In this document: piece by piece, positions 12,329-31,744 of the stretch
How the letters are laid out: the number at the start of each line of letters is the position of its first letter
Position numbering within the stretch: position 1 is the stretch's first letter
Virus record (IMG/VR): IMGVR_UViG_2974601178_000001
Location: 56,296 to 120,295 of that record
Reading direction: 5' to 3' (one strand)
Source: a virus
Taxonomy: Duplodnaviria > Caudoviricetes
Length of the DNA stretch: 64,000 nt
Position numbers and translations under genes: made by a program
The notes under the pieces: model-generated
Seen by the model: only the letters and a program-made list of their open reading frames with translations
Databases searched by the model: none
Told to the model about the DNA's origin: nothing

Positions 12329-12994
12329 TTACAACAGGGTCTCATTTTCCTCATTTAAACTTTCTAAAAGTATATTTGCATGAAGTAGTAATCCGTTTTT
12401 GACACGGTCGTCCTCTTGTTCAGAAGCTACTTGCAGGATGAGTGCGTGTTTGTATGTGACATAGGCTTCGTATGCTTGTTGCTCTGTTGGGTATCTTCCT
12501 AAGTTCTTTTGTTGGCCTGAACCGTCGTTACATTGTGCTAAGAATTTACCCCTGTCTTTGTTAAAATGCACACCTTTCTTGTAACTACCTCTTTTTGCGC
12601 CTCTGTCTGTTAATAATTTATTAACTTTACTACTAACAAAAACACAAGCATCGGGAGAATACACTTTATTATTAGGTAGAATTATATCTTTGTCTAATTG
12701 TTTACCCTTCCGATCTTGGGTCTCCATCCATTGACGGAAGTTAGAGAATGTGTGCCATTCTTTGCAAACAGAAACCTCCTTGTAGGCAGGTTGTTTCTCC
12801 TTTGATTTAAGACAGTACCCTCTCTCAAGAATACCCATCCACCTCGTATAATAGGGGCAACGAGTATACTTTCCGTTTACTTTTTGTGAGGTCTTATACC
12901 AAGAATCATTCACCCCTACTCCATACAACAATGTTCTGTGAGCTAAATCTGATTTACTAGCAGTAACTCTCTGAAAATCATATTCTTCTTTCAT
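12329..12994 (-). CDS. HNH-like homing endonuclease with AP2 domain
   Basis: YGVGVND, VCKEWHTFSNF, LDKDIILPNNKVYSPDACVFV, GV...KFLAQC...LGRY. Confidence 0.8.
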   Translation of the reverse strand: MKEEYDFQRVTASKSDLAHRTLLYGVGVNDSWYKTSQKVNGKYTRCPYYTRWMGILERGYCLKSKEKQPAYKEVSVCKEWHTFSNFRQWMETQDRKGKQLDKDIILPNNKVYSPDACVFVSSKVNKLLTDRGAKRGSYKKGVHFNKDRGKFLAQCNDGSGQQKNLGRYPTEQQAYEAYVTYKHALILQVASEQEDDRVKNGLLLHANILLESLNEENETLL

Positions 12995-27902: not shown

Positions 27903-28949
27903 ATGTCAATAACTGAAGATAAAAATAAAGAAATACTTTATAAACTAGAAAATAAGTATCAACAAAGAGTTGTAGATTTGTTAGGACCCTCCGCCACTTT
28001 CTTAGAGTTTAAAGTAGTTAGTGAAAGGTTAGATAAAAACAAATGCAAACTTATTTGTAACACACATAAGGAAATATGTTACCCTCAAATAGCTAATGTA
28101 CTTCATAGAAAAAGAAGCGGATGTAAACATTGCGCTCAAGAATCTAGAAATAGAAAGAGTATAAAAGATGAAGATGTTTTCTTAGAAGAGCTGAGAGAAT
28201 CTTGTGATAAACATAACTGTACCTTTCTAGGCTACGTAGAAGGATACAAAGGTTCTTACCATACCGAAGTTAAACTAAAGTGTAATATACATACCGAAGA
28301 AGATGAATTTACATGTACAGGTAGAACACTGTCTAGACCCGCAAGAAAAACTTCAGGGTGTCCTTCCTGTTTTAATGAACATTTTTTACAACTATCTATA
28401 AAAAGAAATCAAAAACATATAAATATGTTTTTCGATACAGGTAAATTCCATCCCAATTCTACTTTCTGTAGAGATGAAGAAAGAAAAACTACACAAGGAG
28501 TTAGGAGTTACTGGAAGGTTGTTTGTGGTGATTGTGGTGAAAGCTACCCTTCCTGTACAGGAACTTTAAAAGCAGGTAGTAGGGGATGCAGTTGTGCTAA
28601 ACTAACTAACAATATGGGATTTTACCCAGATAGGGTGAATTGGGATGACACTCTTTACTTATTAAAACTGATATCTAAAAAGGATTGTGATGAAAAAGAG
28701 TGTTTCTATAAGATAGGTAGATCTTTTTGTTTTGACAAAAGACTTTCTAATTTAAAAGCTCATTATGATATAGATGTAATATCTACTATTACTAATAACC
28801 ATAAAGAAATTTTTGAAAAAGAGAAGCACCTTTTAAAAAGTAATAAACCCCATGCTTACTCTCCTCTTATCTCCTTCGGAGGTCAAGGAGAATGTTTCAC
28901 CAAAGAAATACTCAATCACCCAGAAATAATATCCACCTTCAACCTCTAA
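27903..28949 (+). CDS. Free-standing putative homing endonuclease (Zn-finger repeats plus GIY-YIG-like T5orf172-type domain)
   Basis: Repeated C..H / GC..C modules; LYLL...FYKIGRS...KRL...E...FGGQGECF. Confidence 0.75.
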   Translation: MSITEDKNKEILYKLENKYQQRVVDLLGPSATFLEFKVVSERLDKNKCKLICNTHKEICYPQIANVLHRKRSGCKHCAQESRNRKSIKDEDVFLEELRESCDKHNCTFLGYVEGYKGSYHTEVKLKCNIHTEEDEFTCTGRTLSRPARKTSGCPSCFNEHFLQLSIKRNQKHINMFFDTGKFHPNSTFCRDEERKTTQGVRSYWKVVCGDCGESYPSCTGTLKAGSRGCSCAKLTNNMGFYPDRVNWDDTLYLLKLISKKDCDEKECFYKIGRSFCFDKRLSNLKAHYDIDVISTITNNHKEIFEKEKHLLKSNKPHAYSPLISFGGQGECFTKEILNHPEIISTFNL

Positions 28950-29099
28950 TAACCAAAAAGCCCTCCCACGAGGGCATCCCCCTTCCCAACCAACCCCCTT
29001 TCCCCCAAATTTCCCCTTGACACCATCACACCTTTCCCTTAATATATCTACTATCGAAGCAACATTGCTTCACAATTAACCATTTTAGGAGAAATAATC

Positions 29100-29303
29100 A
29101 TGACCAAATCAATAACCCGCTCAGAATCAGCTACTCACTCATTCAGAATATCTTATGGCAGCAAAGGTAACTTTGAATTAAAGTACTCTCGCATCAAGAA
29201 GGGTGCTGGAAAAGGTAAACTTCGTACAAGAGTGTTTTATCGGAAAGGTAATACTTTTGAAAATTTAACTTGGGGTTTAAATGAAAACATACAATGTATT
29301 TAA
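29100..29303 (+). CDS. Small basic protein overlapping the tnpB start
   Basis: TTGACA promoter near 29017, AGGAG RBS, 23-nt overlap with next ORF. Confidence 0.6.
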   Translation: MTKSITRSESATHSFRISYGSKGNFELKYSRIKKGAGKGKLRTRVFYRKGNTFENLTWGLNENIQCI

Positions 29304-30732
29304 AACTTATAGGTTTGAACTAAGAGACCTATCTAAGAAGAAAATTAAATTACTAAATCAATCTTATAAACAAGCAGAGATGCTATATTATAAAGCACTA
29401 TCTCTATGTAAAGAAGATGCTGAGAAGATGTTATTAATTGATGATAAGAAAGAACGTAAGACGGAGAGTTACAAACTTGCCAAAAAGTTGCAAGCTATTG
29501 TTAAACCTTTACCGTATTCAAGTGCAATTAAATCATCTGTCATAGAAGGTGTTAAAGCACAGGTATTATCTTATGTAGAACTAACATTATATGGGCAAGA
29601 TGCAACTTATCCAGAGAAGTTTGATTTAGAATATGATTATGATTATTGGTTGAATGTCCTTATTAACAGCGATTCAAAAGATATAGAAGACTTAGCAAGA
29701 GATGAAATGTCCCGTACCAAAGTTAAAGACTTCAGGCCACTTACTTATGAAAAGTATAGAACTAATGACGGATTTATGATCCTTGATAATGGAGAAGGTC
29801 GTTTGTATGCAATGTTGAGTTTATGGGGTGCTAAAGATAAACGAGCAACACCATTAGATATTAACATGATTGATACACGGACAGGAGAAGAATTTAAGAA
29901 GAAAACTTCTTGTGGATTATTATTCCCATTGATGTGCTCTAATACTCAAAAACAAGCTCTTATAGATGGTCAAGCTAAGACAGCTAAACTTGTAAAACGT
30001 GGTGACAGGTATTTTCTAATGGTAAGTGTTGCCTTTGAAGTAGAGGCTAGGTCACCAAAATATACCCTTGGGGTTGATAGAGGTATAGAAGAAATAGCTA
30101 CATACGTTGTACGTGACGAATCAGGTAAAGTTGTTGATAAGGGGAGTTTCTCTGGTGTACAATTACGTAACCATCAAAGAAGAGTGGAACTAGCACAAAA
30201 GAATAATCAACGTGCAGGAAGAAAACGAGTGCAAGGTTGGAGTAATTACACAACAAACCTGATGCACAATTTATCTAATGAGATAGTGAAGGTAGCTGAT
30301 AAATATTGTTGTCAGGTTGTTATTGAGGATTTGAATAATATAAAGAATAATGCTAACATGAAACGTAAGAAAGGTGCAAGGAAGTCAAACTTTAGAAGAA
30401 TGTTATCTAGGCAACAGTATGGAAGGCTGGAGTTTATGTTAGAATATAAACTTAAAGCAAAAGGGTTACCTCCTTCTAAAAGTGTAAGGGCTGCCTACAC
30501 ATCAACAACCTGCCCTAAATGTGGTAATGTTGATAAAGAAAATCGTCTGACACGAGATACATTCTTATGTAAAGTGTGCGACTACACTGAACACGCTGAT
30601 ATTGTAGGTGCTATAAATATTGCTGGAAAACAGTTGCACTTTGAAAAGATTAAAGGTAAACTTAAGAAAGGGAAACCTTTACCATATGAATTGAAGTATT
30701 CAAATTGGTTGAAAGATAATTTAAAATTATAG
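29281..30732 (+). CDS. tnpB: TnpB/Cas12f-like RNA-guided RuvC nuclease, catalytic triad intact
   Basis: RuvC-I LGVDRG, RuvC-II VVIEDL, Zn finger CPKC...CKVC, RuvC-III HADIVGAINIA. Confidence 0.9.
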   Translation: MKTYNVFKTYRFELRDLSKKKIKLLNQSYKQAEMLYYKALSLCKEDAEKMLLIDDKKERKTESYKLAKKLQAIVKPLPYSSAIKSSVIEGVKAQVLSYVELTLYGQDATYPEKFDLEYDYDYWLNVLINSDSKDIEDLARDEMSRTKVKDFRPLTYEKYRTNDGFMILDNGEGRLYAMLSLWGAKDKRATPLDINMIDTRTGEEFKKKTSCGLLFPLMCSNTQKQALIDGQAKTAKLVKRGDRYFLMVSVAFEVEARSPKYTLGVDRGIEEIATYVVRDESGKVVDKGSFSGVQLRNHQRRVELAQKNNQRAGRKRVQGWSNYTTNLMHNLSNEIVKVADKYCCQVVIEDLNNIKNNANMKRKKGARKSNFRRMLSRQQYGRLEFMLEYKLKAKGLPPSKSVRAAYTSTTCPKCGNVDKENRLTRDTFLCKVCDYTEHADIVGAINIAGKQLHFEKIKGKLKKGKPLPYELKYSNWLKDNLKL

Positions 30733-30760
30733 TTGACTTCAAGTTTTAGTTAAGTATAAT
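30733..30760 (+). promoter_or_regulatory. sigma70 promoter immediately after tnpB stop
   Basis: TTGACT-N16-TATAAT. Confidence 0.7.
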
Positions 30761-30766
30761 GAACTG

Positions 30767-31010
30767 GGTAAATTGCTGAGTTACAATTAAAAATAACTTA
30801 GGGTGCATAGAGGTTTGTGAAGTGATTTATTAACCTCTTTATCTTACCACCCTTTTACTGAGGTTATCTTGTATGAGAGGATTTATCTTCCTTGAGTTAA
30901 CTTTGGTATAAAATCTTACCTTATATGTGAGTAAGCAAAGCTTATGATCGGAGATATGTAATCGTGAGGTGGTATGAGATATAACACATACGTGGTATGT
31001 AAGAACGGGG
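30767..31010 (+). ncRNA. Putative omegaRNA/guide RNA for the TnpB-like nuclease
   Basis: Non-coding; at least five consecutive helices with plus-strand G.U pairs and a possible pseudoknot. Confidence 0.6.
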
Positions 31011-31038
31011 AATATAATTTTAAAAAGGAAACCTTATT

Positions 31039-31434
31039 ATGAATATTTCACAACACTTTGGCAAATTTACCAACTTACCGCAAGCATCTCGCACAAGTTT
31101 ATTAGCTATTGCAGATGGGCACTTTCACTCAATTGATAACACTACTGGTCATGAGGTGTTTGCCATAAATAGAGGACTTGCACACTGGTTGCTACACAAT
31201 TGTGAACATGAAGTTCCTCCTTTGGAAAAGGCTCGTTCTGCAAGTATTCTTGCTCATCAATATTCAACTTCTGGTGCAAAAACCTCTTGGCCTAAGAAAC
31301 CAATTGTGATAAACTGTGATGAAGCTCGTATCGAAGACGGAGTTACACGATTGTACGCAATTGCTTATGCACAAACGGAAGGTGTCTGTATGCCAGTTGT
31401 GTTCAAAACTGAAATTAATGACGAGGAAGAATAA
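31039..31434 (+). CDS. Degenerate ParB/Sulfiredoxin-like domain protein
   Basis: PIVIN...IEDGVTRLYA resembles ParB-N DG.HRL.A. Confidence 0.45.
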   Translation: MNISQHFGKFTNLPQASRTSLLAIADGHFHSIDNTTGHEVFAINRGLAHWLLHNCEHEVPPLEKARSASILAHQYSTSGAKTSWPKKPIVINCDEARIEDGVTRLYAIAYAQTEGVCMPVVFKTEINDEEE

Positions 31435-31435
31435 T

Positions 31436-31744
31436 ATGTGTAAAAAGGATCAATGTCAGCAAAAGTGTAAATCCTGTATAAAAAACTACACTGACGCAGA
31501 AGCACCAATTAAACAATACAATATAACTTTAGAAGAAGGAAACCCTGCTATGAATTGGAAAGAACAACAGCGGCACGATGATATCATTCTTGAAATTGAA
31601 ACTTTGTGCAAAGGTATCACCTCTGCAGAGAAGGATAAGCGCCTAGAGGAAGTGTCTGAGCTTGTTAAAGAGTTGCAGGGTACATTGGCTTATGCTGCTA
31701 AGATTGGTGTTGTCACAGACGCTTACAAACACTTTGTACGATAG
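31436..31744 (+). CDS. Hypothetical protein
   Basis: GAGGA RBS before MCKKDQC. Confidence 0.55.
   Translation: MCKKDQCQQKCKSCIKNYTDAEAPIKQYNITLEEGNPAMNWKEQQRHDDIILEIETLCKGITSAEKDKRLEEVSELVKELQGTLAYAAKIGVVTDAYKHFVR

Follow-up and report, generated by a model that had tools for sequence, protein, structure and literature searches.

The DNA analysed here (the window, 64,000 nucleotides) comes from a large marine phage and forms the right-hand 64 kb of IMGVR_UViG_2974601178_000001, a complete virus record of 120,295 bp that has direct terminal repeats. Among cultured phages, Pseudoalteromonas phage HM1 (Qingdaovirus, 129 kb) is closest to it. Around the locus under study the two phages share blocks of 87-93% identity. 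The locus contains the gene for a 483-aa nuclease resembling Cas12f, a miniature effector of type V CRISPR (short palindromic repeats that are clustered and regularly interspaced) systems, and a putative guide-RNA gene homologous to trans-activating CRISPR RNA (tracrRNA). Comparison with related phage genomes marks out a mobile cassette of 1.7 kb, from about 29272 to 31003, that has no transposase. Its features are listed below in window coordinates; related loci and contigs are referred to by handles such as L166.

29254..29272, no strand assigned: left junction zone with the 10-nt microhomology AAAATTTAAC, where a small conserved phage gene ends
29281..30732, plus strand: gene for a Cas12f-like (type V-F1/V-U3-like) nuclease, 483 aa, with RuvC residues D266/E349/D440 and a CxxC..CxxC zinc ribbon
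30733..30760, plus strand: putative guide-RNA promoter TTGACT-16-TATAAT, 11/12 in the promoter scan, beginning at the first base after the stop codon
30761..30987, plus strand: scaffold RNA, a tracrRNA homologue with eight conserved helices and the 3' end GAUAUAACAC
30843..30847, plus strand: pseudoknot arm CUUAC, an invariant internal loop of the scaffold in alignment A2
30988..31003, plus strand: 3' half of a CRISPR repeat, ATACGTGGTATGTAAG, joined directly to the scaffold
30999..31003, plus strand: second pseudoknot arm GUAAG, the last five bases of the repeat half
31004..31035, plus strand: putative guide segment consisting of phage backbone DNA, the first ~20-32 nt of which are identical to the target in cassette-free relatives

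The initial annotation of this DNA had described a 483-aa RuvC protein with all three catalytic acids and a zinc finger, and this description was confirmed by Pfam and by an alignment of 43 homologues. The best Pfam match was Cas12f1-like_TNB (PF07282, 1.9e-16), with weaker matches to OrfB_IS605 and RuvC_1. Residues E349, D440, C411, C430 and C433 were invariant in the alignment and D266 and C414 nearly so; the window protein has D266, E349, D440 and C411/C414/C430/C433 all in place. The PADLOC Cas12u3 profile matched residues 14-455 with 3.4e-33, above every other Cas12 model, and AsCas12f ranked first (4.6e-23) in a profile search of the PDB. When an AlphaFold model of the protein (predicted local distance difference test score 84) was submitted to Foldseek, AsCas12f, OsCas12f, CnCas12f1 and SpCas12f1 were retrieved at E-values of 7e-17 to 6e-12 with template modelling scores of 0.58/0.66. 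AsCas12f led with 7e-17, whereas TnpB structures ranked far lower (1.6e-9 and 4e-7). Among the NCBIfam models, guided_TnpB scored 111 bits against a cut-off of 100, and Cas12f2 scored 106 bits, far under its cut-off of 450 bits, which calls for caution in assigning the protein to Cas12f. By profile matches and predicted fold, the nuclease is a divergent Cas12f-like member of the TnpB/Cas12 superfamily that stands nearer to Cas12f than to transposon TnpB. Comparison with the nuclease of L166 gave a synonymous divergence (dS) of 0.23 and a ratio of nonsynonymous to synonymous divergence (dN/dS) of 0.10; at the sequence level, the gene is under purifying selection with its catalytic residues intact.

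A separate TTGACT-N16-TATAAT promoter right after the stop codon, followed by a non-coding and densely pairing RNA, had also been proposed, and both proposals held. The element at 30733-30760 was the best site in the region in the promoter scan, and a -35/-10 pair is kept at the same position in six relatives (L166, L003, L083, L212, L211 and L215). Seven homologous loci, 69-98% identical, were aligned over 232 columns (alignment A2). RNAalifold predicted 58 pairs in eight conserved, covarying helices, with compensatory changes at 26 of the pairs. With the predicted partners, 95% of the cells were paired, compared with 40-50% after the 3' partners had been slid by 1-3 columns; doubly changed pairs numbered 26 versus 2-4 in the slid controls, and the covariation score was 0.47 versus 0.07-0.11. 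R1, a covariance model derived from these seven RNAs, scored 199.9 bits at the window scaffold. Among the five pairings listed originally, ctgagtta/taacttag, gggtg..agaggtt/aacctct..caccc and tactgaggtta/taactttggta were retained, the first as a supported alternative helix (89.5% paired, two compensated pairs), whereas cttac/gtaag did not survive as a local hairpin and cttatgat/atcgtgag fell outside the conserved fold. The abundance of G-U pairs on the plus strand was upheld; this feature, the promoter and the direction in which the covariance model matched place the RNA on this strand. The scaffold shows about one difference from that of L166 in 221 nt. Such near-identity despite a dS of 0.23, along with the low dN/dS of the protein, argues that both parts are in use. 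Within 28500-31500, no Rfam family was matched at E-values up to 1. Even with filters off, neither the window nor L166 yielded another copy of the scaffold close to the nuclease gene, whereas relatives have up to two upstream copies.

The nature of this RNA became evident from its relatives. A search of 5.8 billion proteins yielded about 45 homologues of the nuclease with 31-96% identity, stemming from phage-like contigs, Vibrio, Photobacterium, Veronia and Motilimonas. Nearly all homologues of 30-41% identity are followed by a CRISPR array 200-270 nt past the stop codon, with 36-nt repeats and a period of 65-67 nt; relatives from metagenomes have arrays of many repeats. The close phage relatives (protein identity 96% for L166, 82% for L211 and L003, 79% for L083 and 78% for L212) present, in this order, the same promoter, the same RNA of ~225 nt, a hairpin plus ~120 nt, and a mini-array of 2-3 copies of the 28-nt repeat GTGTTATATCACATACGTGATATGTAAG with a 60-nt period. 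In Motilimonas eburnea (L084:3158-3960), an RNA of the tracrRNA family and eight 28-nt repeats lie 5' of a nuclease gene whose product is 56% identical. In the phages, the first ten bases of the repeat are exactly complementary to the scaffold 3' end GAUAUAACAC, and the Motilimonas equivalents AUAGUGCA and UGCACUAU differ in sequence yet are again complementary (8 nt). As the same RNA stands beside arrays in the relatives and its 3' end is complementary to the repeat, the structured RNA is deduced to be a tracrRNA homologue. This complementarity suggests that GAUAUAACAC may be a true anti-repeat; it may instead be a vestigial half repeat, with which its 9/12 similarity to the repeat, in register, would agree. 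The Motilimonas locus, which is chromosomal and has seven spacers, represents a conventional bacterial version of the system.

No full CRISPR repeat and no array were found in the window or in the whole 120-kb genome, and searches of the whole genome for a Y1 TnpA, for Cas1 and for a second copy of the nuclease gene were likewise negative. The earlier statement that a Y1 TnpA, cas1 and an array are absent nearby can thus be extended to the entire genome, but it had overlooked the half repeat at 30988-31003, the sole such sequence in the genome, which fits the repeat consensus of L166, L003, L083, L211 and L212 with one mismatch. The window equals L166 up to ...GAGATATAACAC. At this point L166 goes on with a terminator-like hairpin and its array, and the window with ATACGTGGTATGTAAG and then phage backbone. 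From the two sequences, the event is read as a deletion running from the end of the tracrRNA (..ATAACAC) to the similar 5' arm of a repeat (..ATATCAC), so that the 3' half of the repeat adjoins the tracrRNA. In the protein tree the window nuclease has that of L166 as its sister (support 99/95), and it falls within a set of loci that possess tracrRNA and array; the outgroups have arrays, too. Thus, the fused array-less state is derived. The initial annotation had proposed a domesticated phage RNA-guided nuclease with a decoupled guide gene; an origin from an IS200/IS605 TnpB and its omegaRNA is not supported and has to be replaced by that from a Cas12f-type CRISPR effector, because its relatives possess tracrRNA and arrays and the absence of an array is secondary. 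The reverse order, with the fused form as the ancestral one, was considered as well and is ruled out by the protein tree.

Fusion to the repeat half also allowed the start of the guide to be placed. The CUUAC loop of the scaffold (30843-30847) is complementary to the last five bases of the repeat, GUAAG (30999-31003). In scaffold paralogues of the relatives both arms change together, giving GUAGA:UCUAC (L213, L086) or GUAGA:UCUGC (L215) and GUCAC:GUGAC (L003), and in Veronia CUUCU goes with a repeat ending in GGAAG, so that four versions of the same 5-bp pseudoknot are found across the window, the paralogues and bacterial relatives. A pseudoknot directly 5' of the guide has been described, in a general statement, for Cas12f, Cas12p and TnpB RNAs (bioRxiv 10.1101/2025.01.20.633832). 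Since the pseudoknot arm ends at 31003, the guide start was placed at 31004. L215 contains the same 25-nt sequence, TCTTGCTAATATTCTCTTACACAAA, twice in inverted orientation (L215:272-296, minus strand, and L215:2519-2543, plus strand), and each copy begins right after the pseudoknot arm of a different scaffold paralogue on opposite sides of the cassette, which fits the view of these positions as guides. On this architecture, tracrRNA and repeat half together would make up a natural single-guide RNA whose guide comes from the phage sequence next to it.

Around their nuclease gene, relatives can have as many as three paralogous genes for scaffold RNA, and fused single-guide forms recur among those that keep several; L213/L214 has no downstream RNA at all. 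Model R1 detected one or two extra scaffold paralogues 5' of the nuclease gene (L213:124-577, L086:61-539, L215:302-749 and L003:622-828). These genes are arranged divergently on both strands, and the minus-strand copies, which have a pseudoknot sequence of their own, face out of the left edge of the cassette, suggesting cassettes with guides at both ends. Directly 5' of the nuclease gene in L166 (L166:3450-4000) lie ~550 nt without a called gene, in which the scaffold model gave no match. Exact scans of IMG/VR with the scaffold motif and with the repeat returned only the already known contig.

The boundaries of the cassette were defined by comparison with phages that lack it. On the left, homology to the cassette-free L221 stops at about 29271, and homology to the L166 cassette starts at 29254. 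On the right, homology to the cassette-free HM1, L221 and L223 restarts exactly at 31004 (site A). The empty site reads ...TTATTCC|AACGGGG... in HM1, L221, L223 and L225, the last being the site A of the L166 phage itself with the same TTCC junction. The target adjoining TTCC is AACGGGGAATATAATTTT, and the guide matches it at 31/31 positions in HM1, perfectly over 32 nt in L221 and over at least 22 nt in L223. In the cassette-free phages, TTCC lies just past the native promoter of a conserved 131-aa gene; the cassette in the window replaces this promoter along with two to three small genes (1.3-1.6 kb). The empty site A of L225 (L225:7180-7215) has TTCC and a 1-nt deletion at guide position 8, which could be a form of resistance to the site-A guide.

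In the L166 phage, which is syntenic and belongs to the same group, the unit is found with 94% identity over 29254-30988 at another place, site B. Here the sequence becomes homologous to HM1 and H101 again from the very base that follows the terminal repeat, within the 3' end of an HNH endonuclease gene, and the empty site in HM1 reads ...TTTCC|AATGAGCAAGAGGA..., i.e. TTCC|AATGAGC... In these alignments, two independent sites have a base-exact junction at the end of the scaffold/repeat unit and TTCC 5' of the target in the empty alleles; at equal base frequencies, we estimate the chance of the second site sharing the same 4-mer at ~1/256. TTCC is hence our candidate for the protospacer-adjacent motif (PAM). 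The window has its own copy of the target of the L166 terminal guide at the 3' end of a gene resembling an HNH endonuclease gene (about 12330-12424, minus strand; G000 68625-68719). It reads AGCT|TCTGAACAAG as compared with TTCC|AATGAGCAAG, so that both the motif and the first guide positions are altered, and it could be an escape allele.

The explanation that we favour, and that we hold to be reasonably probable on this comparative evidence, is that the cassette is a transposase-free unit encoding an RNA-guided free-standing homing or exclusion nuclease of Cas12f type with a flank-derived guide. We infer that the cassette is expressed and yields the nuclease together with its natural single-guide RNA, the guide being the adjoining backbone from 31004 onward. 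Type V effectors, Cas12 as well as TnpB, require a PAM to open DNA. Upon co-infection, the nuclease would cut the cassette-free allele of a rival that displays TTCC next to the target. The carrier has GTAAG in place of the PAM and would therefore be spared from cutting itself. Repair of the cut rival allele from the carrier genome would copy the cassette into it, by a logic like that of TnpB homing and of the intronless homing or marker exclusion by T4 Seg and Mob (10.1101/2023.03.14.532601; PMC13565253); alternatively, the rival genome would simply be destroyed. A role as an RNA-guided homing nuclease or as a weapon between phages, already suggested in the initial annotation, is thus favoured by the match of guide and target and by TTCC in the empty alleles. 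A bolder extension, which is possible but in our judgement doubtful, would make these cassettes reprogrammable, transposase-free, RNA-guided gene drives of lytic phages, in which the spacer of a mini-array serves both as guide and as right-hand homology arm. A crossover inside the spacer-protospacer match would set the cassette between PAM and protospacer, and the spacer would become flank. On this extension, it would be understandable why the right junctions are exact to the base at two different sites, why the arrays are so short and why collapse to omegaRNA-like single guides recurs; such collapse would amount to a reversal from CRISPR to omega.

Several observations weigh against the homing or exclusion nuclease. 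The left junction does not abut TTCC, which leaves the origin of the exact right junction unexplained. H101 has TTGCC rather than TTCC at site B, and because the flanks of L003, L083 and L211 matched no empty site in the phage collection, only two independent sites speak for the motif. The solved Cas12f proteins share no more than ~18% identity with the nuclease. Fusion introduced an A-G mismatch into the short hairpin before the pseudoknot arm, and function could be impaired by it. For the internal spacers of the relatives, no convincing protospacer was found by blastn in 50,697 phage records, by blastn-short in HM1 or the window genome, or by three exact scans of IMG/VR. Finally, the loss of the array could equally mark the onset of decay.

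Decay is the core of the most serious competing explanation, which we consider unlikely. In this case a phage CRISPR-Cas12f system would have lost its array, the fused RNA would be useless or mainly the leader of the mRNA for the 131-aa gene, and the nuclease would be on its way to being lost. The array is indeed missing from the genome of the window, the fused hairpin is imperfect owing to the A-G mismatch, and L213/L214 shows that a relative can be devoid of any downstream RNA. A relic would not be expected, however, to encode a catalytically intact protein under purifying selection, or to retain an intact pseudoknot arm in a scaffold nearly identical to that of L166 at a dS of 0.23. Moreover, its guide fits cassette-free alleles that all present a common 5' motif, and fused single guides recur in relatives with several RNA genes. 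A regulatory function in cis appears improbable. The RNA-protein complex would bind beside its own cassette, to the 5' untranslated region of the 131-aa gene, and control transcription in the manner of TldR, Cas12m or Cas12c-like repressors. The guide does fit DNA immediately 5' of the ribosome-binding site of this conserved gene, whose native promoter has been replaced, but the allele of the carrier itself is devoid of the TTCC seen at every empty allele. In addition, all RuvC residues are intact in the window nuclease, whereas the RNA-guided repressors known to us are nuclease-dead or impaired.

Two further explanations are very improbable. One regards the locus as a non-autonomous TnpB element of IS200/IS605 type that is mobilized by TnpA provided in trans by the host or another element, TTCC being the transposon-associated motif. 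The guide equals the right flank as in an omegaRNA, a 4-nt motif lies 5' of the target in the empty sites, and the guided_TnpB model was matched above its cut-off. However, no TnpA is encoded in the genome, the nuclease gene occurs there once, and the left end, which is not at TTCC and stands in for 1.3-1.6 kb of other genes, is not that of a simple insertion. A separate promoter past the stop codon precedes the RNA, which does not overlap the 3' end of the gene; relatives have arrays, and the fold is nearer to Cas12f than to TnpB. An insertion sequence (IS) element having multiple copies or intact ends, which the initial annotation had named as speaking against its own proposal, is ruled out by the single nuclease copy and the absence of a Y1 transposase. 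The other explanation, in our estimation just as improbable, is a weapon against something else, be it host DNA, a satellite or an unrelated phage, with the match to the flank being the unused tail of a former array. Relatives do have internal spacers, for which no convincing protospacer was found, and there are published type V systems of phages whose targets are other mobile elements (Cas12r preprint, 10.64898/2026.04.20.719267). The window, however, has no spacer but the flank, and this flank guide has a perfect target with the common 5' motif in related phages.

Compared with known systems, the cassette-borne nuclease most resembles the type V-F1 (former V-U3) effectors, e.g. AsCas12f (PDB 8J12, 7WJU, 8DZJ), OsCas12f and CnCas12f1. 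It is a miniature RuvC effector with a zinc ribbon, a long tracrRNA gene lies beside its gene and forms a pseudoknot with the repeat 3' end directly before the guide, and no adaptation module is present. Size and domains agree with type V-F (RuvC D/E/D plus C-terminal TNB in a protein of 400-700 aa), as do the covarying scaffold, the anti-repeat complementarity (10 nt in the phages, 8 nt in Motilimonas) and the pseudoknot of the tracrRNA; the adjacent array typical of type V-F is absent from the window but present in the relatives. Unlike the known Cas12f systems, with which it shares ~18% identity, that of the window has its tracrRNA fused to half a repeat, would use flanking genome as guide and resides in a large phage. 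The nuclease TnpB of IS200/IS605, with its omegaRNA, acts in homing (Meers et al., bioRxiv 10.1101/2023.03.14.532601; Karvelis et al., PMC8612924). Like TnpB-omegaRNA, the window has a putative single-molecule guide RNA whose scaffold ends at the right edge of the element and whose guide would come from the flank. Beside the target, the empty site shows a short 5' motif, the occupied site is predicted to be immune, and the element would be copied by break-induced recombination. In contrast to TnpB-omegaRNA, the window has neither TnpA nor transposon ends, the element is present as a single copy, and its left end lies away from the motif. Its RNA has a promoter of its own past the stop codon without overlapping the gene, whereas an omegaRNA normally shares sequence with the tnpB 3' end and is cut out of the tnpB mRNA, and the guide descends from a CRISPR tracrRNA plus repeat.

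T4 Seg and Mob are free-standing phage homing endonucleases that act in intronless homing and marker exclusion (review PMC13565253). As with these, the nuclease gene sits between conserved genes of a large phage and is present or absent among relatives (absent from site A in HM1, L221, L223 and L225, of which L225 is the phage with L166 at site B), and it is predicted to cut the rival allele near its own insertion point and to spread with neighbouring DNA. Unlike in Seg and Mob, recognition in the window nuclease would be by RNA and PAM, not by protein. The Cas12p 'hacker' system (bioRxiv 10.1101/2025.01.20.633832) is likewise a phage-borne compact Cas12 and shares the architecture of the tracrRNA pseudoknot; Cas12r of Thermus phages (10.64898/2026.04.20.719267) is another phage-borne compact Cas12 and is used in conflicts between mobile elements. 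The TranC intermediates (PDB 9JFO) are relevant in that the family of the window nuclease uses both omegaRNA-like single guides and CRISPR RNAs. All three are different protein families from the window nuclease, with matches far weaker than those to Cas12f (Cas12p, Foldseek E 2.4e-7; LaTranC, sequence-profile E 7e-4 and Foldseek E 1e-6). They keep arrays, and none has been described with a flank-derived guide at the edge of a cassette.

Phage-encoded miniature type V systems, Cas12f tracrRNAs, TnpB homing and free-standing homing endonucleases are each already known. A literature search found no Cas12f-type system with a tracrRNA naturally fused to the repeat, a flank guide and PAM-junction geometry at two sites in related phages of lytic type. 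If the homing explanation is true, a CRISPR-type nuclease would serve as a natural homing endonuclease in a phage of virulent type without any transposase, with the choice of target written in RNA and self-protection achieved by loss of the PAM at the insertion point. Such a system would connect free-standing homing endonucleases of phages, transposon homing driven by TnpB and CRISPR systems encoded by viruses, and would imply that the split of omegaRNA into tracrRNA and CRISPR RNA can reverse in nature. In practical terms, the cassette may offer a compact nuclease of 483 aa with a natural single-guide design and the candidate PAM TTCC.

The cassette is bordered by the following elements of the phage backbone:

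29017..29045, plus strand: phage backbone promoter TTGACA-17-TAATAT, 10/12 in the promoter scan, 5' of the small gene and the nuclease gene and outside the cassette
29100..29303, plus strand: small phage gene, 67 aa, whose last codons are replaced by the left junction of the cassette
31039..31434, plus strand: conserved phage gene, 131 aa, taken from the open reading frame list, 3' of the cassette

The sequence of the backbone promoter is common to the cassette-free phages HM1 and L221. The initial annotation had joined the nuclease gene and the 67-aa reading frame into a two-gene unit, a grouping that proved untenable. Homologues of the 67-aa protein (60-93% identity) are encoded on contigs without the nuclease, other genes follow it in L221, L222 and L223, and it is not kept beside the nuclease at other loci. 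On this distribution it is an independent phage gene and no part of the cassette; its 3' end is clipped by the cassette junction, and its position next to the nuclease gene is coincidental. In HM1, L221, L223 and L225, the 131-aa gene is preceded by a native promoter, TTGACT..TAATAT, that ends right before TTCC. This promoter has been lost from the window, where the cassette stands in its place and no terminator was found between the scaffold and the 131-aa gene. The gene is probably read through from the guide-RNA promoter, which would replace the native one. The gene upstream of the shared backbone promoter also differs between the phages, encoding 239 aa in HM1 (L001:3278-3997) versus 348 aa with a weak CapR-domain match in the window (27903-28949). 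Taken as a whole, the neighbourhood of the locus is a mosaic in which small cassettes, all with promoters of their own, have been swapped.

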